Source of the DNA: an uncultured Planctomycetales bacterium | Lineage (GTDB): Bacteria; Omnitrophota; Gorgyraeia; Zapsychrales; JANLHA01 | Length of the DNA stretch: 64,000 nucleotides | Assembly (NCBI GenBank): GCA_964595465.1 | Contig: CAZQQI010000006.1 | Coordinates: forward strand, 655 to 64,654 | Reading direction: 5' to 3' | In this document: piece by piece, positions 40,745 through 62,636 of the stretch | Position numbering within the stretch: position 1 is the first letter of the stretch | Layout: every line of letters starts with the position of its first letter | Notes under the pieces: generated by a model | What the model saw: only the letters and a program-made list of their open reading frames with translations | The model's database searches: none | What the model was told of the DNA's origin: nothing | Program-made: the position numbers and the translations under genes

Positions 40745-40752
40745 AAGGATCC

Positions 40753-42675
40753 TTAATGTCTGACGTTATATAATGCGAAGACTTCATTGGCATAAAGGCG
40801 ATCCAGATAAGGGGATTCCGGCAGGTTGAGATAATTCAGCGCAACGATATAATCCGCCTGATAGGTCTCCAGTGCTTTCTTCAGGGCCGGCGCCGGCGGC
40901 TGTTGAAGAAAAACCTGGTAGGCGCCGATATCCTCTAGACGTTTTTGCCATTCCTCCCCTGCCGCGTAATCAAATCCCACCACACCGCAGTCCCGGTAAG
41001 ACATGATAATGCTTCTCTCCGATCCGATACGGAATCCGCCCATCTCCATGTCATGCGGGACCAGGAACAGCGCGTCCTGTGGAGTATGTTCGCGCACATA
41101 ATCCTGCATATCCAGCCAGGCCCGCTGCAGCTGCCAGAAGCCGCTGCCGTAGCGTTCCAGACGGTACCGCCGGTAATGGTAATAGGAGAAATTCAGCAGA
41201 AGGCAGAAAAATGGCAGGACCAGCAGGATCAGGCCCAGGATATTGCGTTGATGAGGTCGTTTGAATAAACAGAAAAGCAGACCTAACACAACCGTTCCGG
41301 CGAGACATACCGCCAAAGTCAGCCAGGTGGCCAGGCTGTATGATTGATTTTTTATTAGATAAGCGATCATTATCAATGAAAAAACCAGCAAGATCATTCC
41401 CAGGACCTGCAGTCCTCTTCGCGGGTGTGTCTGACCGTAGGCGTGATCCAGGGTGCAGATGCCGAATATGCCCAGAGTGCTGAAGCAGACAAATTCCGGA
41501 CCCAGGCGGAAGAACGGCAGAAATAAGATCATTCCAGCCAGTGGAATAAACCGCTGAAGACGGAAACGGTGGTAGATGAGGATCACGGTCTGCGCCATCA
41601 GAACGAAGGTCATAAATTGGAGATTACGGATCAGATTCAGATCGATCACAAAGCGGCTGGGCCAAATATAGGTAAATAGGAAAGAGATCAGGAGAAAGAC
41701 GGTTCCCGCTTCCATAATGGCGCGTGACCGTTTGTCTTTTTGAAAAACCGGATTGTAGAAAATATTCAGGAGAAAGAGTGCCGCAGTCTGCCAGTAGACC
41801 GCTGTGGTTTGCCAGAATGCTGAAAAACTCTGGAACACGCTTTTCAGAGAGTGGTGATAAAGCAGGAAATTCTGCGGACAGGCCAGCTGATACAGCGGCC
41901 ACCATTGGTCGCGTGAAGGAGATGAAACCGGGGCGCTGAGAAATTTGTTACGGAAGATCCAGATGAGAATCGGCAGGGCACATAGTATAAAGGCACTGAT
42001 GCTCTGCAGGATCTTTTTCCAGCGGACCGGACGTGAACGAAAAAGAAACCAGAGAATGTAGACCAGAGGAAAAATGCTGTAGAGAACATGAACATTGGCA
42101 GCGAGTCCGAGTACAGCAGCGGCTGCCACATAACGTTTCCGATAGAACAGATAAAGCCCGCCGAAAATTATGGCGAGGGCAAATTCCTGATGCGAAAAGG
42201 TGCGGTAAAGGAATTCCTCCACCCTGCCCAGCAGAATGATCATACTGACGCAGAGAAACGCGTTAAAGCGGTCTTTGCTGACGCAATGCCAGAGTTTATA
42301 CATGAAGAAAAACAAGACATAGCGGCTGATCAGGTACAGTAAGAAAAAGACCGCGGGTATCTGCGCCGTGGTGATCAAGCGGGATAATATGGGATACAAA
42401 TAAGTGATAAAATTACCGACCAGGGCATCGACATAATAATCTCCGGGATAAAGGTCGGGATTGATGAGGCGTTTGAGCAGAGGGATTTCGAGATGCTGGT
42501 CATCCCAGCCGTAGGTGTAGCCGTTGGTGGCGAGGAATACACCGAGCAGGAGCAGACTGATGACCCAGTCTGTTTGTACTATCGATATGAATTTCAGCCG
42601 CCACGATTCACGTTTCACGTTTCCCGTTTCCCGTTTTGTTATTTCCAGACAAAGACTTCCCGGACAACTTGCCAC
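40753..42675 (-). CDS. Large polytopic membrane protein (640 aa), GT-C-like candidate
   Basis: It has 15 or more predicted transmembrane helices. It overlaps the upstream GT2 by 37 bp. The start is uncertain because the N-terminus is encoded by a CGTTTCC repeat region. Confidence 0.4.
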   Translation of the reverse strand: MASCPGSLCLEITKRETGNVKRESWRLKFISIVQTDWVISLLLLGVFLATNGYTYGWDDQHLEIPLLKRLINPDLYPGDYYVDALVGNFITYLYPILSRLITTAQIPAVFFLLYLISRYVLFFFMYKLWHCVSKDRFNAFLCVSMIILLGRVEEFLYRTFSHQEFALAIIFGGLYLFYRKRYVAAAAVLGLAANVHVLYSIFPLVYILWFLFRSRPVRWKKILQSISAFILCALPILIWIFRNKFLSAPVSSPSRDQWWPLYQLACPQNFLLYHHSLKSVFQSFSAFWQTTAVYWQTAALFLLNIFYNPVFQKDKRSRAIMEAGTVFLLISFLFTYIWPSRFVIDLNLIRNLQFMTFVLMAQTVILIYHRFRLQRFIPLAGMILFLPFFRLGPEFVCFSTLGIFGICTLDHAYGQTHPRRGLQVLGMILLVFSLIMIAYLIKNQSYSLATWLTLAVCLAGTVVLGLLFCLFKRPHQRNILGLILLVLPFFCLLLNFSYYHYRRYRLERYGSGFWQLQRAWLDMQDYVREHTPQDALFLVPHDMEMGGFRIGSERSIIMSYRDCGVVGFDYAAGEEWQKRLEDIGAYQVFLQQPPAPALKKALETYQADYIVALNYLNLPESPYLDRLYANEVFALYNVRH

Positions 42676-43367
42676 ATGTAGGCGGCTCCCCAGCGCAGGA
42701 CCTGCAGTTTGCGTTCTCCTCCCTCCCGCGCCGGTTCATCGCCGGGGATCTCGGTGACCTTTAGACCGCGTTTAGCGGCACGTACAGATAAGAGCGGTTC
42801 CCAGCTGATATTGGTGCCGAAGAGGCTCTCTTCAAAGGCGTAAGAATCCTCTTTATCCAGATCCAGTTCAGCCGGAAGATCTGTGCGGTAAGCACGATAA
42901 ATGACCATGGCGTCGGTATACTGCGCGCCGTGGAGAAGATTGATCGTCGTCGTAAACAGTTTATTGCCGAACCCGGTTACGGCATCATCATCGTAACTCC
43001 GGGCGTCGTCTTTGTAGCGGGAGACAATGACCATGTCATGCCCCTCACGCATTTTGTTAAGGCATTCGGGTATAAGCTCGGGTATGGAATTCCCGTCCGG
43101 GCTGAAGGTCAGGACAACGTCACCTTTAATATGCGGCCAGGCCTCCATATAGGCGTGACGCATGCCTTTTTTCTGCTGAACGACCACATCATAGCCCAGT
43201 TCCCGGGCGTAGTCAGCTGTTCCGTCCGTTGACTGTCCGTCAACGACCAGGATCTGATCGATCCAGTCGGGATTGACCTTTGGCATCACGGTCTTCATCC
43301 CTTCGATCTCATTAAGTGTGGGTACCAGCAGGGTTACGGTCATACGGGATATCCTTTCTGCGTTCAT
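42639..43367 (-). CDS. GT2 family glycosyltransferase, DPM1/ArnC/GtrB-like (polyprenyl-phosphate sugar synthase)
   Basis: Motifs are LLVPTLNEIEG, VVDGQSTDGT and a DxD. Length is 242 aa. Confidence 0.75.
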   Translation of the reverse strand: MNAERISRMTVTLLVPTLNEIEGMKTVMPKVNPDWIDQILVVDGQSTDGTADYARELGYDVVVQQKKGMRHAYMEAWPHIKGDVVLTFSPDGNSIPELIPECLNKMREGHDMVIVSRYKDDARSYDDDAVTGFGNKLFTTTINLLHGAQYTDAMVIYRAYRTDLPAELDLDKEDSYAFEESLFGTNISWEPLLSVRAAKRGLKVTEIPGDEPAREGGERKLQVLRWGAAYMWQVVREVFVWK

Positions 43368-48772: not shown

Positions 48773-50215
48773 TTGAGCCGGGACAAAAACATGTCCGTGA
48801 AAAAGATCTTTCCCACCCTGCTTACTGTTTTTATTCTTTTATGTTTATGCGGCTGGTATGGCTGCCGCAGTTATCAGGCCTATGACCGCATGAGTGATGT
48901 GAAGATGACCGTTGACGAGGCAGTTTATATTTGGATCGGTATGCAGCTGATCGAGAATCCGTATGATTATTCGGCTACCGGCTACGCGTTATTTAATGAA
49001 AAGACACGGGAAAGGGATCTGCCGTCTTATTTTTACCGGCCCCTTTTTAAGCACCCTCCTCTGTTTTCCTATTCGCAGGCGTTGTCTTTAAACTTTATCC
49101 CGCATGAATCATTGCGTTTTATTTTCCCGAGTCTTTTAGCAGGAATCCTCATGATCCCTTTGGCCTTCGGTATTGGTTTACTTTTAAACGGACGGTTAAC
49201 AGGATTACTCGCGGCCCTGATCACAGCCATGGATCCGGTGCGCATTATGTGTTCCCAAAAGATCTGGATGGATACCATGCTGGGGTTTTTTATGGTTTTG
49301 GGGATTTATTTATTTTTATTGGCGATGCACAAAAAAAAGGATGGCTATTTTACCTGCAGCGGCCTGGTCTTGGGGCTGGCCGGCCTGGTGAAATATCCCG
49401 GGTTATTGGCCTGGTTTGCGGTTCTGGTGTATGTTGCGCTGTACCGCCGGGAAGTCTTGCGGAAAAGCCGTTTTCTTTTCGCTGCCGTCCTTCCTGTTTT
49501 GATGCAGCTCCCCTGGATCGGATGGAACATCCGCGTTTACGGTTGGGGGTTTCTTACGGATCCCTTTGCTCAGCATGGAGGGTTCCGAATGCCGATCGTC
49601 GTTATTCTGATTGGTATGGCTGTTTTAATGTTTTTATTCGTTTTTTTTACTAGGTTTGGGAAGAAGCCGGCATCATATCGGCCCGACAGGCAAAGTCGCA
49701 ACGAAAGCGTTTTTTTATGGATATTACGCCTGGGCGTACTGCTGGCACTGGGGGTTTTCCTGATCAAGGACTATGGTCTGCAACGTTTTGCTTTTTTCAA
49801 TATGCCTCATGTCACCTGGGCCCAGGGATATTTTTCTGGTGCGCCGAGGATATTCTATATCGGGCGCATGATCCAGTTTAATTATGTGTATCTGCTCGGT
49901 TTTATTGCGCTTATAGTCCCGTTCCCTAAGGGAAAAGGATCGGGTTTATTGAAGACCTATATGGTAATTGTATTGCTGTTTTTTATTTTATGGGGAAATT
50001 ATCAATCCCGTTATATCCTCGCCCTGATCCCGGTTCTGGCTGTCTTCAGCAGCAGCATAATTGTGCGTTCGCTTAAGATCTTCGCGGAATTTGAACCTCC
50101 GTCCCTCCGTCTCACCCTTCAATCCGTGCTTCTGATCATGCTGGTTCTGGCGTTGTCACGCACAGCCATGATCAACCATCTGGTCAGCTTTACCAATGAT
50201 ATGTGTTATTTCTGA
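48773..50215 (+). CDS. GT-C membrane glycosyltransferase, ArnT/PMT-like (GT39/GT83-type)
   Basis: It has about 12 predicted transmembrane helices. The first periplasmic loop carries DEAVY…G and HPPL, a characteristic of ArnT/PMT_2-type polyprenyl-phosphate-sugar-dependent transferases. Confidence 0.55.
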   Translation: MSRDKNMSVKKIFPTLLTVFILLCLCGWYGCRSYQAYDRMSDVKMTVDEAVYIWIGMQLIENPYDYSATGYALFNEKTRERDLPSYFYRPLFKHPPLFSYSQALSLNFIPHESLRFIFPSLLAGILMIPLAFGIGLLLNGRLTGLLAALITAMDPVRIMCSQKIWMDTMLGFFMVLGIYLFLLAMHKKKDGYFTCSGLVLGLAGLVKYPGLLAWFAVLVYVALYRREVLRKSRFLFAAVLPVLMQLPWIGWNIRVYGWGFLTDPFAQHGGFRMPIVVILIGMAVLMFLFVFFTRFGKKPASYRPDRQSRNESVFLWILRLGVLLALGVFLIKDYGLQRFAFFNMPHVTWAQGYFSGAPRIFYIGRMIQFNYVYLLGFIALIVPFPKGKGSGLLKTYMVIVLLFFILWGNYQSRYILALIPVLAVFSSSIIVRSLKIFAEFEPPSLRLTLQSVLLIMLVLALSRTAMINHLVSFTNDMCYF

Positions 50216-50227
50216 AAGACGTGATCT

Positions 50228-52069
50228 TTACGGCAGGACCCGGAAAATGAAACTTTCCCGGTTGCTTAAAATCCGTTCAAAGCCGGGATGACGATCCATG
50301 TTCTCCAGCTTTTCATTCACCGGCTCAGGACCAAAGCGCTGAGCATCCCTGCGGGTGACAAGAATGTATGAGAATCCCTGGCGAATAAGGTTATGATGCA
50401 GGTGTTCAAGATCGTCATGGAAGGCATGCGCGAAGGCCAGACGATAATCTTGGCTCCAGACGTCAGCCCGCATATCCATGCCGATGACCAGCTGATTATC
50501 TGTGAACATAAAGACTTTGGTGTTAGCCGGCAGATATTCTCTCAACCAGAGGTAGCCGTCCATTTCCCTGTCCGAGTTCCAGTAAACTCCATACGTCCAT
50601 TGTGAGTGGTTGAACTGGTATTTGTATTTCCCGGATTGAAACGTCACGATCAGGATAAACATAAGGGTGATGGCCGGAGCAATAAGCGGATGGCGCAGTT
50701 TTTTCAGCAGGATAAAGATCCCTTCTGCGGCCAGAAATGATGCCGGGATAGCGAACAGCATCCAGAACCGGAAGGCGAACAGGCCGATCGGCAGGTTGAA
50801 GGTCTTGCTGTTCATGCCCAGAAATGTGAAGACTAGCCAAAATATGATCGTTGAAAAATAATAACGCTGATGAGGTTGAGAGGTTCGAAAAATACGGATG
50901 CAGGTATAGATCAGTCCGAGAAGTGCAAGAAAGCTGAAAAAGAAACCCAGACCTTTTGGATTATTGATCCAATTGTATTTGGGAAAAGTGATGTAATCGG
51001 CCAGAGTATAGGCTTCTGTGGCGGTGCCGCCGGATGCAGCAAAAATATTTTTAGCAACAGTCCCGGTTGGTGCGGCGGCGGCATAAACCGTGTCTTTACG
51101 TGTAATCACCTCGGATTTTCCAGCCAGCATGTCCATTGCGACAGATCCCCACCAGAGAGCGGCGATCAGGATACCTCCTAAAATGGCGGCTATGACGTTT
51201 TTCCAGGCCCCCCTTCCTCTGTAGGAGATCGCGTAAGCAGCCAGCATTAAAAGGGCCATAATTGCGAATTTGATCGCCTGTGTCGGCTGGACCAAAGGAA
51301 TGGCGGCACAGCAAATTGCGGCGGGAACGATTTGTTTTTTGTCGGTCAGACATTTCATCAGGAAATAAAATGCCGGGAAAAATAAAGTGACTGCTAAAGC
51401 ATGCGCCCAGATAAAATGCGATAGATAGCACGGGGCAAGTAAGAGAAAGAATGTGGACAGCAGAGCCTTGTCCTGGTCCCGCGACAGTTCCCGGGCCATG
51501 ATATAGAAAAAAAGAAATCCCAGCGAGATGATCAGGCCGTTAAAGAATTTTAAAACCCAATGCAGAGACGGATGGATCTGATGCAGAAGCCCCATGATGA
51601 TCGCGTATCCCGGCGGATAAGGATTCAGGTAATGGAATGTGCCTGATGGAGGGCTGATATTTTTTTCCAGCGCGACATATTTACTGCTGACCGCATGCGA
51701 CCAGGGGTCATCATCTTCCAGCCAGGGGTACTGAAACGCGCCGTGGATGTAGATTAGTGCTGCCAGGGCAAAGATCAAGGCCAGGATGATGACCGTTTGC
51801 CATTTGCCGCGGTCCGGCCGGAATACGACGGGTGAACTGAACCTTCCCCCCCCTTTCAGGCGGCGCAACGGCAGAACGATTCCCAATAGGGCCGTTCCCA
51901 GGAAGATCCGCCAATCAATGGGGATGTGCAGAACGTGCAGGATGACGCCGAGGATCGGGATGGCTGCCAGGCCCAGGGCGAGCTTGTACAGGAGAGAACC
52001 CTTTTGAAGAGGCAAGGAGCCTAATCCGTAGAGCATGAAGGAAAAAATGATGACTATCAGTATGAACAT
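50228..52069 (-). CDS. Large polytopic membrane protein, GT-C-like candidate (613 aa)
   Basis: It has about 14 predicted transmembrane helices and an EDDDPWSH loop motif. It is the distal gene of the long minus-strand EPS operon. Confidence 0.4.
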   Translation of the reverse strand: MFILIVIIFSFMLYGLGSLPLQKGSLLYKLALGLAAIPILGVILHVLHIPIDWRIFLGTALLGIVLPLRRLKGGGRFSSPVVFRPDRGKWQTVIILALIFALAALIYIHGAFQYPWLEDDDPWSHAVSSKYVALEKNISPPSGTFHYLNPYPPGYAIIMGLLHQIHPSLHWVLKFFNGLIISLGFLFFYIMARELSRDQDKALLSTFFLLLAPCYLSHFIWAHALAVTLFFPAFYFLMKCLTDKKQIVPAAICCAAIPLVQPTQAIKFAIMALLMLAAYAISYRGRGAWKNVIAAILGGILIAALWWGSVAMDMLAGKSEVITRKDTVYAAAAPTGTVAKNIFAASGGTATEAYTLADYITFPKYNWINNPKGLGFFFSFLALLGLIYTCIRIFRTSQPHQRYYFSTIIFWLVFTFLGMNSKTFNLPIGLFAFRFWMLFAIPASFLAAEGIFILLKKLRHPLIAPAITLMFILIVTFQSGKYKYQFNHSQWTYGVYWNSDREMDGYLWLREYLPANTKVFMFTDNQLVIGMDMRADVWSQDYRLAFAHAFHDDLEHLHHNLIRQGFSYILVTRRDAQRFGPEPVNEKLENMDRHPGFERILSNRESFIFRVLP

Positions 52070-52073
52070 AAAT

Positions 52074-53225
52074 TTAGCGGCGTTTTTTCAGTCGGATGAG
52101 ATTTTTCAGGGTTTTAAAGAGTGACGGCGCATGGCAAAGGATATTAGAATACGCCTGGTTGGCCAGCGGGCAGGCGCATTCTTTGGCGCGGATGGAGCGC
52201 CGTACCTCCCTCGCCTGTTGTGAATGCCAGATTTTCTGGAAGTCATAATCCGTATCTCTAAGCCGGCCCAGTGGTTTGTTATATCCCAGGACACAGCAGG
52301 GCCAGACCTCGCCGTCATAATTGATGTGGACATTGGAAATGCCGCCATAGCAGGGAATGACCTGACGGTTTTCTTTTATAATTCTGGCGGCCAGGTCATA
52401 ATAGGTTAACCGCAGGGCCTCGGTGGTCTTGGCCAGGTCTTTTTTATGTTTTATGTTTTTCAATATTTTCTGTTTGAATTGAGTTATCAGGCGCTCGTAT
52501 TCTTCCCCGGACGGCGCGATCAGGTGCCCGATATTATGAAATTCCGTGCGCTGCTCAGCGATCTCGTTGCGGTAGCTTTCGACACCCTGCTGATGGACAT
52601 AATCCTCGATCTCAGCCAGTTTATGCAGATTGAATTTAGAAACCACGGTGCCGAGTTCTAGATGGAAATTGGAATATTCCCGGGCAATCTGTTTGAGGAG
52701 CTTAATGGTCTGTTCGAGCTTGGCAAAGTTTCCCGGAACACCGCGGATCTCGTCGTGCAGGGTGCCGACAGCATCGATAGACGGTTTAATAGAAAATTGG
52801 ATATCATGACCGTGCTTTTTGATGATCTCCAGGCTCTGACGCGCATAATCCGCGATCCGTTCGGGCAGTAGAGCATTGGTCGGAGTATGGATGATCTTGG
52901 GGGTTAAGTGGCGGCAGGCCAGCTCGATGATCTGAGGGAGATCTTTTCGTAAAAACGGTTCCCCGCCGCTGATGTTGAAGAAATAGACATGCCCCAGGGA
53001 TGTGAAGATTTTTTCGATCTCTTCGAGGGTGAGATCGTTCTCCCGGCATGCCGGATTGTCCCGGTAATGCCGGCCGATCTGACAGGTCTTGCAAAGCGAA
53101 TTACACGCGGCGGTCACGGAATAGGTTAACGTGATCGGGGTCGAAGATCTGCACAGTCCCAGACGGGCCAGCTGATAGTTGATGGTTTTGGGGAATATAT
53201 AAAAAATAAAATCAGAGAGCTTCAT
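52074..53225 (-). CDS. Radical SAM protein with C-terminal SPASM/twitch-like Cys cluster
   Basis: CNSLCKTC (CxxxCxxC) is present at residues about 41-48. C-terminal cysteine pairs are CYGG…WPCCVLG…CACPLANQAYSNILC. It overlaps the pyruvyl transferase gene by ATGA. Confidence 0.75.
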   Translation of the reverse strand: MKLSDFIFYIFPKTINYQLARLGLCRSSTPITLTYSVTAACNSLCKTCQIGRHYRDNPACRENDLTLEEIEKIFTSLGHVYFFNISGGEPFLRKDLPQIIELACRHLTPKIIHTPTNALLPERIADYARQSLEIIKKHGHDIQFSIKPSIDAVGTLHDEIRGVPGNFAKLEQTIKLLKQIAREYSNFHLELGTVVSKFNLHKLAEIEDYVHQQGVESYRNEIAEQRTEFHNIGHLIAPSGEEYERLITQFKQKILKNIKHKKDLAKTTEALRLTYYDLAARIIKENRQVIPCYGGISNVHINYDGEVWPCCVLGYNKPLGRLRDTDYDFQKIWHSQQAREVRRSIRAKECACPLANQAYSNILCHAPSLFKTLKNLIRLKKRR

Positions 53226-54454
53226 GAGGTATCCCTAGTTAGATCAAAAATCGTTGAGGCATTCAATCGCGCCGCGGCTTTTTGGTTGGAAATTTTTTCT
53301 TTTAAGTTAGATTGAACGGAAGTATTCTTAAAGTAATCCAAGGCTGTTGTTATTTTCTGATAGGCCGCTGCGGCTGAAAAGTTTTCGATGTCGAGAATAA
53401 AATTTTTCAGGCCCAGTTCATTCATAAAATCATATGTTTTTTTGCCATATGCTATTCCGATCATCGGTTTGAAGGTTTCAGCAAAAAAAATCAGGGAGTG
53501 GAACCTCATCCCGATTAAAAGATCGGCACATTTAATGATGCCTTTAATTTCCTGAGGTGGAAATTCCTGGTTTACTGGGAAGCATTCTTGTTTATTATTT
53601 ACGATTTTCATAATATCATCTGCGGAGATCCGATCATCGTTTGGTGGTTTGCAGGACATCGGCACGAAAAAAACAAAGGCATTATGGGTTTCAATTATGT
53701 TATCAACGAGTCTGGCACATTCAGAAATAAAGGTATTGTATTTATTTTCTCCACCAGGAATCCAGGTTTTTGAATTTAAATCTTGCAGATGCTTTACATA
53801 CCACCGCCGGATGGTAAAAACGACTTTTAACCGGGAAGGCTCTACTAGCTGGTTGTCTCCATTAAAGGGAGTTTTTGTTTTGGATGTCGTTAAGGTTATG
53901 GCAGGGTCAGCAGTTACTTTTAACAGCTGATCTTTAACGCCGATGTCGCGCAGTATTTTTTTGGAATAATGTCCCCGCAATCCGATGAAATTCATACGGT
54001 TTAGAGTGAAGCGTGTTAAAATTTTTCCATTTCTTGTTGTGATGGGGCCTGCCCCTATTCCATACAGTGCTGTTTTTTTGAATAGCATTTGAGCAAATAA
54101 AATTTTAAAGAGCCAGAATGGGATAAAAAAAGGATGTGTTTGGTCTTGAAGGATCGTCCCCCCTCCTGTAATAAAAATTGAACAACAGATAAAGGCTTTG
54201 ATAGTTTGAAATATCCACGTGATTTTACGAAAACCTTTTTCGTTAGGTTCCAAAAGACCAAAGCGTCCGGAATAAATAAATTTTTCATCAGGATAATGGT
54301 GTTGTGAAAATTGGGGGTTATCAGAAAATATCGTAAAGTCCCCTTTTGGAAAATGTTTACGAAGTTGCTTTAATAAACATATCATTAGTGCTTCATCACC
54401 TGCGTTGCCGTTGCCATATCCTCCGGAGATTAAAATGTTGTTTTTCTTTCTCAT
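53222..54454 (-). CDS. Polysaccharide pyruvyl transferase (CsaB/WcaK family)
   Basis: The family-typical N-terminus is ILISGGYGNGNAGDEALM. Length is 410 aa. Confidence 0.75.
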   Translation of the reverse strand: MRKKNNILISGGYGNGNAGDEALMICLLKQLRKHFPKGDFTIFSDNPQFSQHHYPDEKFIYSGRFGLLEPNEKGFRKITWIFQTIKAFICCSIFITGGGTILQDQTHPFFIPFWLFKILFAQMLFKKTALYGIGAGPITTRNGKILTRFTLNRMNFIGLRGHYSKKILRDIGVKDQLLKVTADPAITLTTSKTKTPFNGDNQLVEPSRLKVVFTIRRWYVKHLQDLNSKTWIPGGENKYNTFISECARLVDNIIETHNAFVFFVPMSCKPPNDDRISADDIMKIVNNKQECFPVNQEFPPQEIKGIIKCADLLIGMRFHSLIFFAETFKPMIGIAYGKKTYDFMNELGLKNFILDIENFSAAAAYQKITTALDYFKNTSVQSNLKEKISNQKAAARLNASTIFDLTRDTS

Positions 54455-55237
54455 TTAAATTTTTTCTCCAATGATGTAAAAAATGTGTGCGTATAAAAAT
54501 TTAATGATTAATGGTAGAGGTAGTTTTTCAATAAGATAAACCCAAAGAAACCATCGCGGAAATCGCCCGGATTTGACGTAGTCGATATACGGAATTTCCC
54601 ATTCAAATTGTGAAAAATTAACAGGGTTGCGATGAAGCCGAATATCACGAAACCCTACTGAATCCGGCCATACAGGACAATCAACAACGCCGATCTTCAG
54701 ATTTTTTAAACCATAAGATGCCATGAATTCTTTAAGAAATTTAGGGCTGTTAAAGTTTATATCGCCATGGGTCCATTGAATTTTTGTGCGCCAATGTGCA
54801 AATTTATGCAATGGAAAGCCGATATTCCGCTTGTTAACAGAAAATACAGCAACATATTTCTTTGAAATACGCATCATTTCTTTTATTAGGGCTTCTTTGT
54901 CGGGATATGTGGGAATGAATGCGAAATTCCAAACGAAATCAAAAGAGTTATCGTTGAATTCTGTATGATCAATGTTAGGGACATCAACAAAATGGATATT
55001 TTTTCTAATATTTAATGCTTCATAAAACTTTGCGGAGCGCTGATCGCCATTGACCAGAGTAACATGGAGCCCGGCATGCGCGAAATCAAAAGAGTATAGT
55101 GATGGCGCTGCTTTTGCTCCGTGCGCTGGGAGTTCACATACAGTGTTAATATTGTATTCTTTAACAAAATTTTTAAGTTTTTTCCCTAAAGAAAATCGTT
55201 CGTAATTAACGCCAAAAACTTCTGATTCTTTATGCAT
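54455..55237 (-). CDS. Hypothetical protein (possible divergent methyltransferase-like fold), EPS operon
   Basis: No confident motif was found. Its stop is immediately adjacent to the upstream gene, consistent with operon membership. Confidence 0.35.
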   Translation of the reverse strand: MHKESEVFGVNYERFSLGKKLKNFVKEYNINTVCELPAHGAKAAPSLYSFDFAHAGLHVTLVNGDQRSAKFYEALNIRKNIHFVDVPNIDHTEFNDNSFDFVWNFAFIPTYPDKEALIKEMMRISKKYVAVFSVNKRNIGFPLHKFAHWRTKIQWTHGDINFNSPKFLKEFMASYGLKNLKIGVVDCPVWPDSVGFRDIRLHRNPVNFSQFEWEIPYIDYVKSGRFPRWFLWVYLIEKLPLPLIIKFLYAHIFYIIGEKI

Positions 55238-55238
55238 T

Positions 55239-56234
55239 TTAAATGAGTCCTTTATTATGATACCATTGAAGTGTTTTTGATAGTCCTTCTTCTAGATCAA
55301 TTTGAGGTTCATATTTCAACTCGCTTTTCGCTTTGCTGATATCTAAAATTCTATCGTGTGTTATTGATGAGATATTTCGCGCGGTCACCACGGGTTTTTT
55401 ATTTATTGATTTCATCAATTTTTCTTGAAGCCACGCTAAAAATTTTATTAAAAATACTGGAAAGTATACATAAAAAATTTTTTTGTTTAAAAATTTTTTT
55501 ATCACATTAAGAATTTCTTTTTGGCTGAATGATCGCGTCGGTCCGATCAGATAGGTCTCCCCTGTTTTTGCGTGGTCAACGGCAAGGATCAGTGCATCGA
55601 TCAGATCGTCAATGTATAAAGAAGGCGCAAGATTTTTGCCTAAACCGATTTTTGGATAGAATCCTTTTTTCGCAACTTTTGTCATGGTGAAGAAATCCCC
55701 TTTAAATCCTGGTCCGTATATCATACATGGGCGAATAATCGTTATCGGCAGGCCTTGTTCAATATATGATAACGCCGCGTGGTCGCTTTCATGTTTAGAT
55801 CGTTGATATGGTGTATATGGATTGCATTCAGTGTTTTCGTTAATGCGATGATCTTTTAGGATGCCATAGGCTGCCGTGCTGCTGATGTGAATAATTTTTT
55901 GAATGGATGGATTTTTACAACATTCATTTAAGATATTTTTTGTGCCTTCAACATTAACGGCGCGGAATTTCTTAAAAGCAGATTCAGATGGAAGATCGTG
56001 GCCCATGAGTGCAGCAAGATGAAATACGCAATCGATATTGTCGGTAGTGCCTGATAAGGTTTCAGGAGAAGTGATATCCCCTATATGAAAGTCTAAGTTG
56101 GATTGTTGGCCCAACATTTTTTTTGCTTTATCAGCATCTCTGACTAAGCAACGGCACCGATGTCCCAGTTTTAGAAGCCTTTTGACCAGGTTCTGCCCTA
56201 TAAAGCCGGTTGATCCAGTGATGAGAATATTCAT
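55239..56234 (-). CDS. NAD-dependent epimerase/dehydratase (extended SDR)
   Basis: The NAD-binding motif is ILITGSTGFIGQNL and a YxxxK catalytic pair is present. Length is 331 aa. Confidence 0.8.
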   Translation of the reverse strand: MNILITGSTGFIGQNLVKRLLKLGHRCRCLVRDADKAKKMLGQQSNLDFHIGDITSPETLSGTTDNIDCVFHLAALMGHDLPSESAFKKFRAVNVEGTKNILNECCKNPSIQKIIHISSTAAYGILKDHRINENTECNPYTPYQRSKHESDHAALSYIEQGLPITIIRPCMIYGPGFKGDFFTMTKVAKKGFYPKIGLGKNLAPSLYIDDLIDALILAVDHAKTGETYLIGPTRSFSQKEILNVIKKFLNKKIFYVYFPVFLIKFLAWLQEKLMKSINKKPVVTARNISSITHDRILDISKAKSELKYEPQIDLEEGLSKTLQWYHNKGLI

Positions 56235-56240
56235 AAATAA

Positions 56241-57515
56241 TTATGGTTGTGGCAATTCTAAAAGCTTATAGATTTCTTTTTTCATTAATTCTGATGCTTG
56301 ACCTGGACAAGAATTTACTTTTTTTGAAAATTCTTCTAATTTGTCAAGTGGATAATTGTGTAATGACCCTTCAAGTTTCTCCTTCAAATCGGAAAAGTCC
56401 GGTTTGAGAGTCGGGGCGATTGTTTTTAGTTCAGTAATAAGGCAGTTCTTGACAACAACATTTTCCGGGAAAGGGACGAAAATAATTGGTTTTTTTAGGA
56501 GTGCGGTATTCAAACACAATGATGTGAAGTCGGAAATAACAATATCAGCAACAATCATATACTCGACCCAATCATCCTCAGGTTCCCGGAATAAGATTCC
56601 TTCTTTTTTTTGAGTACGCAAATAATTACCCCAAACACGTTTATTCTTAGGTTGAGGGCGATGCTCGCGAGGGTGTATGTTTAAAATAAAATCATATTCG
56701 GATGTTAGAGAATTAATTTTTTTTAAGAATTTGTCACCATGCATATTGAAAAGACAATAGGGTCCCCAAGTACTGAGTATAAAAACAGCGGGTTTGTCAG
56801 TGGTTAAACCGATTTTATGGCGAAGGCGTGAACGGTGATTATACTTGTCAAGCATTTTATCATTTTGCAGGAGTCCAACAACCTTGATAACTTCATCAAA
56901 TTGAGGATCGATTTGGATTGCCGCAGTTTTGTTCCAATCGCTTGAGGAAAAAATACAATCAAAGCGCATTGCACCTCTCCTTAGATTTCGATAAACATAG
57001 TTACTATAGGTGAAACAATCATTGTCTTTTCGTTTGCTGCACACCTTATTAGTGAATCGTGAGAGATTTCGCTTTCCAGATTCAATGCCGTGACGAATCC
57101 ATAAAGTTTTGCAGCGTTCATTAGTTACTAAATGTCGCTGCCATCCTGATGAAGTAATGATAAGATCCCATTTATAGATAAAGGCTTTTAAAATTGAAAT
57201 TTTTTTATATGGAAGCTTATTTAAAATAAAATTCTTGCCATTTTTTCTATCAAATCGAAAGAAATCTAATAAGCGGATTTTCAGGCGGTCATCTGTTTTG
57301 ATAAGATCAATTGTTTCAGCAAGATATTCGGCCTGCAGTGATCGATCACAAACGATCAGAATATTTCTTTCGTTCTTTGATTCTGTTTTTTTAGATGATT
57401 TTATTAAAGGGTAAGTTAGAATCCCCAGAAATCGGAACAGATGATCAGTCAGTAAATATTCAAAAGCATCGCAGATGAATTGTTTTAAAGTTGTATGTTT
57501 TCCTAAAATTTTCAT
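56241..57515 (-). CDS. CDP-glycerol glycerophosphotransferase (TagF/TagB)-like protein
   Basis: The size and C-terminal region (…ILSTWGPY…, …ISDFTSLCLNTALLKKPIIF…) resemble the TagF family. This is a weak assignment. Confidence 0.35.
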   Translation of the reverse strand: MKILGKHTTLKQFICDAFEYLLTDHLFRFLGILTYPLIKSSKKTESKNERNILIVCDRSLQAEYLAETIDLIKTDDRLKIRLLDFFRFDRKNGKNFILNKLPYKKISILKAFIYKWDLIITSSGWQRHLVTNERCKTLWIRHGIESGKRNLSRFTNKVCSKRKDNDCFTYSNYVYRNLRRGAMRFDCIFSSSDWNKTAAIQIDPQFDEVIKVVGLLQNDKMLDKYNHRSRLRHKIGLTTDKPAVFILSTWGPYCLFNMHGDKFLKKINSLTSEYDFILNIHPREHRPQPKNKRVWGNYLRTQKKEGILFREPEDDWVEYMIVADIVISDFTSLCLNTALLKKPIIFVPFPENVVVKNCLITELKTIAPTLKPDFSDLKEKLEGSLHNYPLDKLEEFSKKVNSCPGQASELMKKEIYKLLELPQP

Positions 57516-57516
57516 T

Positions 57517-58389
57517 TTATTTTCTTATAAATAGAGTGCTTATTATGCCAAAACTTTTTATTATGGTGCTTATGACAGCAAGGATCCACATTTGAATAAA
57601 TAATTTTCTTGTTATTGCCACGCTGCGTTTATTGATTCTTGTTGTTAATGTTTTCGGTTTTGGTGGCAAAAAGGATTTCAGTGTATTTGAGATAATTTTA
57701 TTTTTCGATATTTCGGTGTTCTTATAGTATGGAACGACTCCCTTTCCGATTCGGTATGATTTTTTTATTAAACCTTTAAAATTTCTTGTGGGGTGCTTAA
57801 CGATTGCTGCAGGGGAAAACAGAAGCCTATAATTTTTTGATGTGATATTTTTTGTCCATTGTCTGTCCCCTCCTGATTCTACACATGGGAAAAGCCCTTC
57901 TTTTTGAAATATGTTTTTTGGAGCAAACAGATTAGCTGTTTGGCAGACGCCTTTTTTGATTGAGGTTTCTGTGTTTAAAAAGGTTACAAAATCATATAAT
58001 TCAACTGGAGATCTTTTATTTCGGAAAAAAAGGTTGATTTTTCCACCGACTAGATCTGCTTTCCCATCGATAATCGGCTTGACCCCTTCCTCTAGCCAGT
58101 TATTACTCGGAATACAATCAGAATCTGTAAAGGCCAAAATTTCTCCTTGTGCGGTTTTAATGCCGGTATTGCGCGCAGCATAAGACCCTTTTTTGCCTTC
58201 AAAAGCGTAGACAGTATTAGGCAGTTGTTCGACTAAATTCTTGATACTTTCAGTGGAATTATTATCAACGACAATGATTTCGTAAAGATGCCGCGGATAG
58301 CTCTGATTTTGTAAAGCGTCCAGACACAGCTTAAGACGCTGCGAGTCGTTATGGACGGGAATTATAACTGAAATAAAGGGGTTATTCAT
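57517..58389 (-). CDS. GT2 family glycosyltransferase (copy A)
   Basis: Motifs are ISVIIPVHNDSQRL and FTDSDCIP. It overlaps the upstream gene by 8 bp. Confidence 0.8.
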   Translation of the reverse strand: MNNPFISVIIPVHNDSQRLKLCLDALQNQSYPRHLYEIIVVDNNSTESIKNLVEQLPNTVYAFEGKKGSYAARNTGIKTAQGEILAFTDSDCIPSNNWLEEGVKPIIDGKADLVGGKINLFFRNKRSPVELYDFVTFLNTETSIKKGVCQTANLFAPKNIFQKEGLFPCVESGGDRQWTKNITSKNYRLLFSPAAIVKHPTRNFKGLIKKSYRIGKGVVPYYKNTEISKNKIISNTLKSFLPPKPKTLTTRINKRSVAITRKLFIQMWILAVISTIIKSFGIISTLFIRK

Positions 58390-59527
58390 TGTAGCCGTTT
58401 ATGTGAAGGTTTGTTAGGACTTCATCCGGTAATCGTGTTAATTCATAAATTCTGGCTGTCAATGTTGCCGGATCAGCTGTGTTTTTGTCGAACATTTTGG
58501 TCTTGTTATTATATGTTTTGTTGATCTGCTGTTTGACCCACCATGCGATCTTTTCACGGGATGTATTGTCGTCCTGAAAAACACTCAGGGTAAAGGCATT
58601 TTCAAATCCACACGGATTATAAGGATATCCGAAGCGGTTATCCACCAATTGCTCTATATATTGCTGGGAATTCATATAGTCATAGCATACCTGAAAAACA
58701 GGACTTTGCCAAAAGCTATGATCCGGAAAAACACCTTTCAGTAAAGCAAATCCGTACATGTTGAACGCGTGGTATCCGATGGATTTATAAATAAGTTCTT
58801 CTGAAAGCGGTTTTATGCATTTTTTCAAAGAGCGTGTTATTTTTTTTCTGAGTGATATGTTTTTTAAACGGTGAAGGGGTAGAGGGTGATAGATGAGCCC
58901 TGTCTTGAGGACGTCAAGATTGAGGGATAAGGAATCCAGAAAATGACGGATTTTGGGGTAGATGCCATACTGATCATGTTTGTCAAGAAGGGCTGAGCAG
59001 GCCGCGAACCAGAGCTGATGATTAAACGTCGGATCTAAGGCGAGTTTCGTTCCGTCAATTTCCAGCTTGTGCCAAAGAGTATTGTTTTTGTCATACGTAT
59101 GGAGGCAAAAGACTTCACGGGCAAGGTTAATATACTTCGGGTCATTTAATATTTCACTGGCTTTAGCTAAAGCTTCGAAGGTCCATGCCTGTCCGATGAG
59201 TCCGTTGCAGCGATCCTTTTTACCCTTCTTGCGGTGAAAAAAGGAAAAACCGTGAGGCCGGGCTTCGGGAGAACAAAGATATTCTGCTAGCTTTTGAATA
59301 TGATCTAAATATATTTCTTTTTCATCAAGTTCATAGCATTTCGCCAGGGTGATGAGCCAGTGAGCTGAATTTCGTACCGGTGTTTCAGGATCATCATAAG
59401 GGCCGTTATGACCGCTTTGAAATTTGCCGTCTTGAAAACTGCAAATCAAGTTTTTGTTTGTAACATTAAGGATGAATTCTGCTGCAGTCATCTCAAGCTC
59501 GTATGATTTGTGATAAGTTTTTAACAA
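58382..59527 (-). CDS. Hypothetical protein (381 aa), candidate polysaccharide-modifying enzyme; full-length partner of GT2 copy A
   Basis: No secure family assignment could be made; secondary-structure-like helical repeats suggest an alpha/alpha-toroid. Its C-terminal 75 aa are duplicated at 60379-60684. Confidence 0.4.
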   Translation of the reverse strand: MLKTYHKSYELEMTAAEFILNVTNKNLICSFQDGKFQSGHNGPYDDPETPVRNSAHWLITLAKCYELDEKEIYLDHIQKLAEYLCSPEARPHGFSFFHRKKGKKDRCNGLIGQAWTFEALAKASEILNDPKYINLAREVFCLHTYDKNNTLWHKLEIDGTKLALDPTFNHQLWFAACSALLDKHDQYGIYPKIRHFLDSLSLNLDVLKTGLIYHPLPLHRLKNISLRKKITRSLKKCIKPLSEELIYKSIGYHAFNMYGFALLKGVFPDHSFWQSPVFQVCYDYMNSQQYIEQLVDNRFGYPYNPCGFENAFTLSVFQDDNTSREKIAWWVKQQINKTYNNKTKMFDKNTADPATLTARIYELTRLPDEVLTNLHINGYNE

Positions 59528-60386
59528 TCGTTATAACTCTTCCCGAAAATGTAGCAAATCGGCATAACCACGCGACCCCCCATATCGATAAGAGCTTTTT
59601 GGACATGTCCGGCGTTCCCCGTTCCTCAGTAAGTTTTCTGATGTGCCTGGGGCTGGGCGGCAGTAATCCCAACAATGTGCGTGTGAAAAATTTTCTTTTG
59701 GGTTCTTTTAACTCCAGCCAGATATAGGGCTGACCTTTCCCGACACGGAAGGATTTTTTCAAAAGAGGTATTAATTTTCTTGCGGGATGCTTAACGGTCG
59801 CGTCTTTCTGGTAGTAGATTTGAATGCCTTGTTGTGTTGCGCTTTTTGTCCATATGACATCACCACCAGAACAACACGTTGGGAATAAACCGATTATATC
59901 GAACACGTTTTTTTTAACAAAAAGATTCGCTGTCTTTCCTATTTTACGTCGATGAATATTTTCTTTGTGTTGCATATTTACAATGGAATCATAGAATTCA
60001 GCAGAACTTTTTTCTGCACTATAGATGAAAGCGATTTTTCCGCCTACAAGATCAGCGGTGCCTTCGATGATAGGTTTTGAACCTTCGTGCAGCCAATCTT
60101 GGCAAGGGATACAATCCGAATCGGTAAACGCGATAATTTCGCCTTGTGCGATTGAGAGCCCTTTATTGCGCGCCGCGTATGACCTCTTCTCCTTTTCAAA
60201 GGTGTAAATGGTCTTAGGATACCTTTCGACCAAGGATTTGATATCTTCGGTAGAATTATTGTCAACGACAATGATTTCGTACCGGTCAGCGGGATAAGTT
60301 TGATCATGTAGGGCATCGAGGCATTTTTTTAAACGCTGGCTGTCATTATAAACCGGGATTATAATCGAAATAAACGGGTTATTCAT
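59493..60386 (-). CDS. GT2 family glycosyltransferase (copy B, paralog of 57517-58389)
   Basis: Motifs are ISIIIPVYNDSQRL and FTDSDCIP. It is about 55% identical to copy A and has the same 8-bp overlap with its upstream ORF. Confidence 0.8.
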   Translation of the reverse strand: MNNPFISIIIPVYNDSQRLKKCLDALHDQTYPADRYEIIVVDNNSTEDIKSLVERYPKTIYTFEKEKRSYAARNKGLSIAQGEIIAFTDSDCIPCQDWLHEGSKPIIEGTADLVGGKIAFIYSAEKSSAEFYDSIVNMQHKENIHRRKIGKTANLFVKKNVFDIIGLFPTCCSGGDVIWTKSATQQGIQIYYQKDATVKHPARKLIPLLKKSFRVGKGQPYIWLELKEPKRKFFTRTLLGLLPPSPRHIRKLTEERGTPDMSKKLLSIWGVAWLCRFATFSGRVITIVKNLSQIIRA

Positions 60387-60684
60387 TGTGATGGTTTATC
60401 TGAATGTTTGCTAGGATTTTCTGCGGTAATCGTGTCAATTCATAAATTCTTGCTGTCAGCGTTGCCGGATCAGTTGTGTTTTTATCGAACATTCCGGTCC
60501 TGTTATTATATGTTTTGCTGATCTGCTGGTTGACCCACCATGCGATTTTTTCCTGGGATGTATTGTCATGCTGAAAAACACTTAGTGTGAATGCGTTTTC
60601 AAAGTACGCACTTAACTTATCCGCACAATTGAGAATCGGGATTATTATGGAGACTTCAGGCAATATTTTTTTGTCTATGGACAT
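60379..60684 (-). pseudogene. Truncated duplicate (C-terminal approximately 75 aa) of the 58382-59527 gene
   Basis: YFENAFTLSVFQHDNTSQEKIAWWVNQQISKTYNN…TLTARIYELTRLP is near-identical to the C-terminus of the 381-aa protein. The N-terminal 25 aa are unrelated, giving a 101-aa ORF. Confidence 0.65.
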
Positions 60685-60695
60685 AAGTTAAAAAT

Positions 60696-61889
60696 TCAAT
60701 TTTGCAATACAGATTCAAGCTTATGATTCAGGTTTTCTGTATTAAAGTGGCATTTAATAAAATGTCGTGCTGCTTTTGCGCATTTTTGCGCGTTTTCCCA
60801 ATTGGATAGAACATATTTTATCTTTTCGTATAATGCAACCGGATCAGATTCTGGCACCAGCCAGCCAGTTTCGTTGTCCGTGATGAGTTCAGGGATGCCG
60901 GAATGATTCGAGGAAATGACCGGGATGCCGCGGGCCATAGATTCCATTAAAACGACCGGGATCCCCTCTTTGTCCCCGGTATGCGGGTCTGTTTTACTCG
61001 GAAGAATGAAAATATCAGTATTGTCATAATATTTTCCGATTTGATCATTCGGGATAGACCCGAGCATATTGACATGCCGGTCCAGTTGATAGTCTTTAAT
61101 AAGTCGATTTATGACCGGTTCCATTGGTCCGGATCCAATAATTGTATAGGAAAATCGGTAGTATTGCTTTAATAAAGATAATGCTTTAAGCGAATCATCA
61201 TATCCTTTTTTGGTGACCAGTCTTCCAATAGTGAGGAACCTGACAGGATTCTGCATGTTTAGAGATCGTGCCTGATAGACATGTTTTTTAATATCAATAC
61301 CCATGTGCAGTATATTGAGCTTTTTTTCAGGAGCGCCGAGTTGAATTAATTTTTCTTTCCAGTGATTAGAAATAGGTAATAAGATATCAGCGGTATTAAA
61401 AATATCATGATAAATGTTAGATCCGTATTTTTTAAGATAGGCGGACATGTCAATGCCATGAAAAAAAACCGCAACGTTTGCGTATGGCTGTAAGAATTTT
61501 AAATATTTAAGTTTGTTGGCAACGTAGCCAAAGTGGATGATGAAAGCGTCCACGTCTTCGTATTCGGCTAGTTGGACAGAATAAATAAATGAGCCTAACG
61601 GTCTTTTTTTTAATGCTGAGAAAAATATTTTTAGAATGCGCAAACCGTATTTCGGGAAAGCCTGACATAAATATTTAAAGAATATGAGCAAGCGGCCCAT
61701 AATTTTTTTGGGGCAATGAAGATACCGGACTTTATTTCTAATCTCATGGGAAAAGTTATCACCAGGTTTCCCCTTGTGCATAGCACATATGTATATATCA
61801 TGGCCGCGGGCCATCATCCCTCTGATCTGGTTCAGAATAAAGGTTTGGGTCGTCGCCGGAAATTTGTATACGCAAAAAATTATTTTCAT
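60696..61889 (-). CDS. GT4 family glycosyltransferase (GT-B fold, Glycos_transf_1)
   Basis: The C-terminal EGIPVVLMESMARGIPVISS has the E-x7-E-like motif of retaining GT4 enzymes. Confidence 0.8.
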   Translation of the reverse strand: MKIIFCVYKFPATTQTFILNQIRGMMARGHDIYICAMHKGKPGDNFSHEIRNKVRYLHCPKKIMGRLLIFFKYLCQAFPKYGLRILKIFFSALKKRPLGSFIYSVQLAEYEDVDAFIIHFGYVANKLKYLKFLQPYANVAVFFHGIDMSAYLKKYGSNIYHDIFNTADILLPISNHWKEKLIQLGAPEKKLNILHMGIDIKKHVYQARSLNMQNPVRFLTIGRLVTKKGYDDSLKALSLLKQYYRFSYTIIGSGPMEPVINRLIKDYQLDRHVNMLGSIPNDQIGKYYDNTDIFILPSKTDPHTGDKEGIPVVLMESMARGIPVISSNHSGIPELITDNETGWLVPESDPVALYEKIKYVLSNWENAQKCAKAARHFIKCHFNTENLNHKLESVLQN

Positions 61890-61910: not shown

Positions 61911-62636
61911 TCAATTTTTCTTTATTCGGGCTTTTGTAACAATCTGGTAACCAAACAGAGATGGAAACTGTTTTAGGATTGGATAAAAAAGACGCTTAGG
62001 CCGTATCCATCGGGGAAATTTATAGCATGGCAGAACATCGGTCAGTTCAAATCCGGCATTTTCGAGCAAGTCGTGAAATGAATTTAGCGTAAAATGGTGA
62101 ATATGTTCTGCATTGTGAATAAGGTAATCCTTTGGGAAATCCCCCCGTAATAAATCCAGACGGTTTTGGTACCAGGCAATATTAGGGAAAGAGGCAATTA
62201 AAATGCCATTATCTTCTAGCAAAGATCTCAGTTGGTGAAGGGCTTTTTCCGGCTCGAAAAGGTGTTCAAGCACCTCTAAAGCAATGGCAAAATCGAATCG
62301 CTTATTATTCATTTTTTCAAGGAGATCATCGTGCTCTAAATTGATTTGATGCAATTCATCATAGAAAGGAGCGGCTAGGCTCAAGGCGGTTTCTGATATG
62401 TCACAGCCTGTAAGCACTGTTGAAGCGCTATAATTTTCTTTTAATAATTTCCCAAGGGTGCCTTCGCCGCAGGCTGAATCAAGGATATGGACAGTGTCCT
62501 TCCCCATGTGTTCTTTAATCATATGAATTGTTTTAACAATTCTTTCTGGTATCCACATGCCTTCCCGTGTGTGAAGACGTTGTTGAGCATTGCGTTTTAA
62601 CCAATAATTTTCATAAAAAGTTTTAGAATTAATCAT
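61911..62636 (-). CDS. Class I SAM-dependent methyltransferase
   Basis: Motif I is ILDSACGEGTLG. Length is 241 aa. Confidence 0.7.
   Translation of the reverse strand: MINSKTFYENYWLKRNAQQRLHTREGMWIPERIVKTIHMIKEHMGKDTVHILDSACGEGTLGKLLKENYSASTVLTGCDISETALSLAAPFYDELHQINLEHDDLLEKMNNKRFDFAIALEVLEHLFEPEKALHQLRSLLEDNGILIASFPNIAWYQNRLDLLRGDFPKDYLIHNAEHIHHFTLNSFHDLLENAGFELTDVLPCYKFPRWIRPKRLFYPILKQFPSLFGYQIVTKARIKKN

Follow-up and report, generated by a model that had tools for sequence, protein, structure and literature searches.

A radical SAM enzyme family with a Twitch-like C-terminal domain in surface-glycan loci of Omnitrophota and distant phyla

Does a radical S-adenosylmethionine (SAM) enzyme that is encoded among glycosyltransferases (GTs) act on a sugar or on a peptide, and by which chemistry? 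This question is raised by a 64,000-nucleotide stretch of Omnitrophota DNA (assembly GCA_964595465.1, contig CAZQQI010000006.1, positions 655 to 64,654), referred to in full as the window. The gene at 52074-53225 on its minus strand, hereafter rSAM, was described in an initial annotation as a radical SAM enzyme inside an exopolysaccharide operon. From the analysis reported here, rSAM is very probably a sugar-directed enzyme of a glycan pathway. The explanation as a whole, namely a Twitch-type radical SAM enzyme of a glycan-assembly family that oxidizes a carrier-bound sugar together with a short-chain dehydrogenase/reductase (SDR), is considered moderately probable.

The gene and its motifs were located as listed below. 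Conservation figures were obtained from 105 diverse full-length representatives of the family, with 29-55% identity.

52074..53225, minus strand: rSAM, the gene under study; radical SAM enzyme with a C-terminal Twitch/SPASM-type domain, 383 amino acids, ATG start
53082..53105, minus strand: codons of C41-x3-C45-x2-C48, ligands of the SAM-binding [4Fe-4S] cluster; motif 98-99% conserved in the 105 relatives
52956..52970, minus strand: codons of S86-G-G-E-P90, the GGE motif for binding of the SAM methionine; G87, G88 and E89 each at least 90% conserved
52170..52352, minus strand: auxiliary-cluster domain, residues 292-352, with the C292-x12-G305-x4-C310 hairpin and C350-x-C352; Pfam SPASM, four cysteines conserved

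The gene is an exact open reading frame (ORF), as initially annotated, and its CxxxCxxC motif reads C41-N-S-L-C45-K-T-C48. Both domains that had been named as a check gave Pfam matches above cut-off: Radical_SAM (PF04055) with E = 1.8e-12 and 48.2 bits (cut-off 29.5), and SPASM (PF13186, corresponding to TIGR04085) with E = 7.1e-10 and 39.5 bits (cut-off 21.5) over residues 292-352. With its CxxxCxxC motif, above-cut-off profile, GGE motif and partial TIM-barrel fold, the 383-residue protein belongs to the radical SAM superfamily. An identical protein is present in the database, derived from a Candidatus Omnitrophota metagenome-assembled genome and named just 'radical SAM protein'.

The C-terminal cysteines of the protein are C292, C310, C311, C350, C352 and C364. 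C292, C310, C350 and C352 are kept in 92-96% of the relatives, while C311 (43%) and C364 (29%) are not family-wide. The seven-cysteine SPASM motif (CX9-15GX4C...CX2CX5CX3C...C, two auxiliary clusters) was not found in rSAM: the CX12GX4C half is present and the CX2CX5CX3C half is replaced by CxC. The sequence pattern is that of the Twitch class, characterized by a truncated SPASM-type hairpin, three to four cysteines and one auxiliary cluster. Since only four C-terminal cysteines are conserved throughout the family, the pattern fits a single auxiliary Fe-S cluster of the Twitch-like type and not a two-cluster SPASM domain. Of the SPASM/twitch-like cysteines described initially, the Pfam SPASM match and the Twitch likeness are thus retained, and a full SPASM domain, with seven conserved cysteines instead of four, is not.

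In an AlphaFold2 model (predicted local distance difference test 89.1, predicted template modeling score 0.89), the protein folds into a partial barrel, a pair of long bridging helices at residues 240-285 and a hairpin domain at the C-terminus, with a beta-hairpin at 298-308. Conserved polar or charged residues in the family are D151, R161, H157, E221, R226 and R272. Foldseek placed SkfB, CteB, anSME and MoaA at the top ranks. The predicted fold class is clear; the chemistry cannot be read from it.

Searches for relatives yielded 3348 homologues in a 90% library, which puts the assignment far beyond chance; the best 120 are 60-74% identical and approximately 380 residues long. In a 50% library, 441 clusters were retrieved at E < 1e-30 and 3119 at E < 1e-10; no relatives were found in viral contigs. 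Identity is 55-74% across Omnitrophota, Deltaproteobacteria and Enterocloster (Firmicutes), and one partial relative, 61% identical, was labeled Pacearchaeota by its source. All 44 matches to NCBIfam equivalogs (TIGR04053, AhbD, NirJ, MftC, AlbA, SkfB, viperin, MoaA and others) were far below their cut-offs, the best being TIGR04053 with 66.5 bits against a cut-off of 395. Literature searches combining radical SAM enzymes with surface-glycan, lipid-carrier and flippase themes returned no publication on the family. The family is therefore uncharacterized, large, strongly conserved and outside the curated families, within a known superfamily and structural subclass. Some loci hold two paralogues: the copies in locus L050 score 666 and 240 bits, locus L003 holds a tandem pair, and in locus L024 the second copy is split by a frameshift.

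In total, 87 related loci were collected (80 metagenome loci and several genome loci) and dereplicated at 85% rSAM identity, resulting in 67 groups, of which 22 were well flanked (four or more genes to either side). Neighboring proteins were clustered, and hidden Markov models built from the clusters were then searched against the loci. Among the 22 well-flanked groups, a GT4 glycosyltransferase was found in 17, a MOP flippase in 15 and a large polytopic membrane protein other than MOP in 15 as well. The most frequent enzymatic partner was an SDR (13 groups), often encoded directly upstream of rSAM. A GT2 glycosyltransferase of the polyprenyl-phosphate type, with C-terminal transmembrane segments, was present in 10 groups, a methyltransferase-like protein, usually directly upstream of rSAM, in eight, and a pyruvyl transferase in seven; UDP-glucose dehydrogenase (UGDH) and an LPG_synthase_TM-like protein were each found in three. 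The initial statement that rSAM is surrounded by glycosyltransferases could be extended, its neighbors being glycosyltransferases and sugar-modifying enzymes.

The gene order GT2-GT4-SDR-(methyltransferase)-rSAM recurs in Firmicutes, Omnitrophota and other independent lineages. For the co-occurring GT2, the closest models are AglJ, PpgS, dolichyl-phosphate hexose transferase and ArnC, which makes it an enzyme of the polyprenyl-phosphate sugar synthase type. Of 44 large membrane proteins near rSAM, 12 match PMT_2 and two match PTPS_related; GT-C transferases belong to the recurrent partners. In the cultured Enterocloster clostridioformis, an orthologue (ENY89400.1) with 57% identity lies in a compact operon in the order membrane protein, GT2, GT4, SDR, methyltransferase-like protein, rSAM, LPG_synthase_TM-like protein, membrane protein, UGDH. 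In the related loci, SDR partners are just 26-48% identical and methyltransferase-like partners 34-71%, compared with 55-74% for rSAM. On these sequence comparisons, the higher identity of rSAM suggests that the gene is under unusually strong constraint or has recently spread by horizontal transfer.

Fusion proteins were sought among the representatives of the 50% library. In P0122, which belongs to a 14-member Candidatus Fermentibacter cluster, an N-terminal LPG_synthase_TM domain (flippase-like, membrane) is fused to an rSAM part of 51% identity. Five proteins are GT2-rSAM fusions (30-34% identity), P0220 carries a GT4 domain and falls in the same identity range, and in P0124 a ferredoxin-reductase-type flavin adenine dinucleotide (FAD) domain is fused to an rSAM part of 40% identity. 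Judged from their domain architecture, these fusions connect the family with the assembly of glycans at the membrane. A further candidate, P0235, combining rSAM with a PTPS_related membrane domain, was not counted: it holds only the N-terminal 243 rSAM residues and is likely a frameshift or an assembly chimera.

If the substrate were a peptide or protein, rSAM would be a maturase, either of a ribosomally synthesized and post-translationally modified peptide (RiPP) or, in the manner of anSME, as activator of a neighboring enzyme or glycoprotein acceptor. Among solved structures, those that match best by sequence or by Foldseek do belong to peptide-modifying enzymes (SkfB, CteB, anSME, SuiB); a significant sequence match was obtained for SkfB alone (E = 8.5e-7, N-terminal half). 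Many of the NCBIfam matches, all far below cut-off, are RiPP maturases. Against this, no family of intergenic small ORFs within 3 kb of rSAM was common to more than two of the 87 loci, and pairs common to two loci came from duplicated copies of one contig. Gaps between rSAM and the adjacent genes have a median of approximately 35 bp on each side. Apparent conserved peptides from a first small-ORF clustering were discarded, all being out-of-frame or antisense shadows of rSAM, SDR or methyltransferase genes. The stretch before the CxxxCxxC motif, about 30 residues forming one helix, is too short for a RiPP recognition element (RRE) or other peptide-recognition domain; accordingly, no N-terminal RRE/PqqD-like domain and no PqqD match were found in the protein. 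Sulfatase, protease and exporter genes were not recurrent among the neighbors, and in addition to the missing sulfatase family the cysteine complement differs from that of anSME. Finally, the fusions are to glycosyltransferases. A maturase is therefore considered very improbable. The initial annotation, which had preferred a glycan-pathway enzyme to a RiPP maturase and had named a conserved short precursor gene in homologous loci as the finding that would reverse this choice, is borne out: no such gene was detected in the 87 loci, there is no space for an RRE, and both neighbors and fusions belong to glycan assembly.

Within the window, rSAM is accompanied by the following genes.

53222..54454, minus strand: polysaccharide pyruvyl transferase, CsaB/WcaK-like (Pfam PS_pyruv_trans 2.6e-38; CsaB 141 bits, below cut-off)
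54455..55237, minus strand: methyltransferase-like protein, 260 amino acids, class I fold, atypical motif I 'VCELPAHGAKA' (Methyltransf_11 9.2e-7)
55239..56234, minus strand: extended SDR of the epimerase/ketoreductase type (Pfam Epimerase 3.3e-42; GxxGxxG, SSTAAYG, YQRSK)
56241..57515, minus strand: TagF-like glycerophosphotransferase (Glyphos_transf)
57517..58389, minus strand: GT2 glycosyltransferase (Pfam)
58382..59527, minus strand: 381-residue protein, no Pfam or NCBIfam match, sub-threshold GH88 only
59493..60386, minus strand: GT2 glycosyltransferase (Pfam)
60379..60684, minus strand: 101-residue ORF, no Pfam match
60696..61889, minus strand: GT4 glycosyltransferase, WcaL-like (profile matches)
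61911..62636, minus strand: class I SAM methyltransferase, 241 amino acids (profile match)
62641..63960, minus strand: MOP/Wzx-type flippase, Polysacc_synt_3 (profile match); the ORF start may lie past the end of the window
50228..52069, minus strand: membrane glycosyltransferase of GT-C fold, downstream of rSAM, 613 amino acids, AglB/STT3-like, invariant loop with 'WLEDDDPW'
48773..50215, plus strand: second GT-C enzyme, PMT_2/GT39-like, convergent with the operon (Pfam PMT_2 1.5e-17)
42639..43367, minus strand: GT2 like AglJ and dolichyl-phosphate hexose transferase, of the polyprenyl-phosphate sugar synthase type, 9 kb away (profile matches)
40753..42675, minus strand: 640-residue membrane protein with DUF6798, second glycosylation module
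39332..40744, minus strand: methyltransferase-GT2 fusion, second glycosylation module

The last three genes, at 39332-43367 on the minus strand, form a second glycosylation module, composed of the AglJ-like GT2, the DUF6798 membrane protein and the methyltransferase-GT2 fusion. The genes scanned between 27.7 and 64 kb of the window included neither UGDH nor any other nucleotide-sugar gene. The SDR carries an S/YxxxK triad and lacks the acidic D/E pair of 4,6-dehydratases and UDP-glucuronic acid decarboxylases. Its nearest models are HpnA, OleD, SdmB and GalE, with NCBIfam also returning dTDP-glucose dehydratase; HpnA, OleD and SdmB act on lipid-type substrates. Because the acidic pair is missing and these are the nearest models, the SDR is, as far as can be read from its sequence, an epimerase or ketoreductase, predicted to be incapable of making the usual 4-keto-6-deoxy intermediate alone.

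Downstream, the ATG of the 613-residue membrane protein gene follows the rSAM stop codon after only 4 nucleotides. As the operon ends in this AglB/STT3-like GT-C enzyme, it may produce a lipid-linked glycan for transfer to protein or cell wall. The surface-glycan setting implied by the term 'exopolysaccharide operon' is upheld, and exopolysaccharide as the actual product is uncertain. A specific tie between the GT-C protein and rSAM was rejected, since Omnitrophota orthologues keep the PMT_2-PFK-SMC flank without an upstream rSAM. On a Woesearchaeota contig (L091, 11428-14317), two B12-binding radical SAM genes and an FAD oxidoreductase adjoin a homologue of the 613-residue GT-C protein and two PMT_2 genes, representing another association of radical SAM enzymes with GT-C glycosylation.

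On its other side, the rSAM start codon overlaps the stop codon of the pyruvyl transferase gene as ATGA (GAT ACC TCA TGA / ATG AAG CTC), from which translational coupling of both genes had been proposed. The base composition changes at this very site. The rSAM gene (GC 0.50, GC content at third codon positions, GC3, 0.61) and the downstream GT-C gene (GC 0.50, GC3 0.60) agree with the backbone of approximately 0.50, while the pyruvyl transferase gene and all operon genes upstream of it have a GC of 0.35-0.42 and a GC3 of 0.30-0.44. Between the pyruvyl transferase gene, with a GC3 of 0.37, and rSAM, with 0.61, the change is abrupt and falls exactly on the ATGA overlap, 53222-53225. This suggests that a recently exchanged low-GC glycan cassette was joined to resident genes at the ATGA junction. 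Two other Omnitrophota contigs keep the flank of GT-C, PMT_2, PFK and SMC genes, with different glycan genes and no rSAM. From the composition break and these contigs, which carry other glycan genes on the same flank, the window is concluded to contain a variable, mosaic surface-glycan locus in which rSAM is one accessory step. Being located at a recombination junction, the overlap supports a functional pairing of rSAM and pyruvyl transferase only weakly. The overlap itself was confirmed; a conserved functional link was not, as a pyruvyl transferase occurs in seven of the 22 groups, is almost never adjacent to rSAM in related loci, and lies across the GC3 break in the window.

Which chemistry could then be assigned to rSAM? 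In the proposed mechanism, the enzyme would abstract a hydrogen atom from a sugar still on its carrier. The most probable substrate is a sugar that the co-occurring AglJ/ArnC-like GT2 has linked to polyprenyl phosphate, with a nucleotide sugar as the second choice. The second electron would pass to the auxiliary cluster, resulting in a keto-sugar, and the reductase/epimerase-type SDR would reduce the ketone from the other face, either directly, giving net epimerization, or after further processing. The methyltransferase-like partner may decorate the product. Subsequently, the modified sugar would be flipped and incorporated into or transferred onto the glycan by the GT-C enzymes. Formation of a keto-sugar followed by SDR reduction is favored because the auxiliary cluster of BtrN and SpeY serves to oxidize the substrate radical. 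In formal terms, this would be an epimerization of the DprE1/DprE2 kind that needs neither oxygen nor flavin. Drawn from this analogy, the specific dehydrogenase-plus-SDR chemistry is put forward tentatively and may well be wrong in its details.

Two other chemistries on a sugar are live alternatives. In the first, rSAM would be a BlsE-like radical decarboxylase removing the carboxylate of a glucuronic acid residue, carrier-linked or in the glycan, resulting in a pentose. UGDH genes occur in three of the well-flanked groups and in the E. clostridioformis operon; BlsE is not among the Foldseek top 50 for the rSAM model. Such a decarboxylation is judged unlikely. In the second, to which a slightly lower probability still is given, rSAM and the SDR would resemble the AprD4/AprD3 pair, a precedent for radical SAM dehydration combined with SDR reduction: rSAM would dehydrate a vicinal diol to a keto-deoxy intermediate, which the SDR would reduce to a deoxy sugar. 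The tight and frequent pairing with a reductase-type SDR directly upstream of rSAM speaks for this pair, as does the S/YxxxK triad of that SDR without dehydratase residues.

A lipid- or protein-directed role is less likely than these. By modifying the polyprenyl carrier or the tail of a membrane glycolipid, rSAM would follow the model of GDGT-MAS, which modifies archaeal lipids. Against this, the neighbors are overwhelmingly sugar-handling enzymes, and the conserved D151, R161, H157, E221, R226 and R272 suggest a polar substrate, so that a lipid-directed enzyme is regarded as quite improbable.

Several observations weigh against oxidation of a carrier-bound sugar by rSAM and SDR. No member of the family has been studied and the chemistry is taken entirely from analogy. 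An SDR is absent from nine and a methyltransferase-like protein from 14 of the 22 well-flanked groups, and neither is thus obligatory. In the window, the SDR and methyltransferase-like genes differ from rSAM in base composition, and for that reason may not be long-standing partners of rSAM there; in other loci, SDR, methyltransferase-like and rSAM genes have one common composition. The GT2 and GT4 fusions, at just 30-34% identity, may represent paralogous subfamilies. Moreover, the fold searches single out no sugar enzyme, as SkfB, anSME, MoaA and SuiB score approximately as BlsE does.

Going beyond the carrier-sugar oxidation favored above, the family could be an oxygen-independent radical counterpart of DprE1-type oxidases that, together with its SDR, rebuilds the polyprenyl-phosphate-attached sugar at the membrane. 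The rebuilding might be an epimerization or another conversion (deoxygenation, decarboxylation or carbocycle formation). This extension is doubtful. If true, anaerobes ranging from gut Firmicutes to Omnitrophota and DPANN archaea would build a previously unknown monosaccharide into their surface glycans.

The significance of the locus lies in a single, strongly conserved rSAM family that is part of primary glycan assembly for the cell envelope in distant phyla. To our knowledge, nearly all known radical SAM enzymes with carbohydrate substrates come from antibiotic pathways. Identification of the reaction would provide a new sugar modification, probably a sugar new to the surface antigens of anaerobes, among them a human-gut commensal/pathobiont, and an annotation for thousands of proteins now labeled just 'radical SAM protein'. 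The orthologue in cultured E. clostridioformis makes the family directly testable.

Compared with known systems, rSAM shares a partial TIM barrel and a C-terminal Fe-S domain with SkfB, anSME, SuiB and CteB. The genes of these enzymes lie close to those of their peptide substrates, and an N-terminal RRE is often present; rSAM has neither, and unlike in SPASM peptide enzymes, the seven-cysteine SPASM motif is not conserved in the rSAM family. The cytosylglucuronate decarboxylase BlsE (PDB 7VOB) has no detectable sequence similarity to rSAM; it belongs to a nucleoside-antibiotic pathway and carries a CxxxCxMC motif, whereas the rSAM locus has no cytosylglucuronate synthase. In the epimerization of decaprenyl-phosphoryl-ribose by DprE1/DprE2 and in three-component glycosylation of the ArnC/ArnT type, as in the pathway proposed for rSAM, a sugar is modified on a polyprenyl-phosphate carrier made by a GT2 and is then flipped and transferred by a GT-C enzyme, a keto intermediate being reduced by an SDR. 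DprE1 is a flavoenzyme and not a radical SAM enzyme, and the likeness is one of analogy only; we know of no radical SAM replacement of DprE1. The favored mechanistic analogues are BtrN and SpeY, Twitch dehydrogenases of aminoglycoside and spectinomycin pathways, which act on carbohydrates or cyclitols and have in common with rSAM a single auxiliary [4Fe-4S] site, predicted in rSAM, and a short C-terminal hairpin domain.
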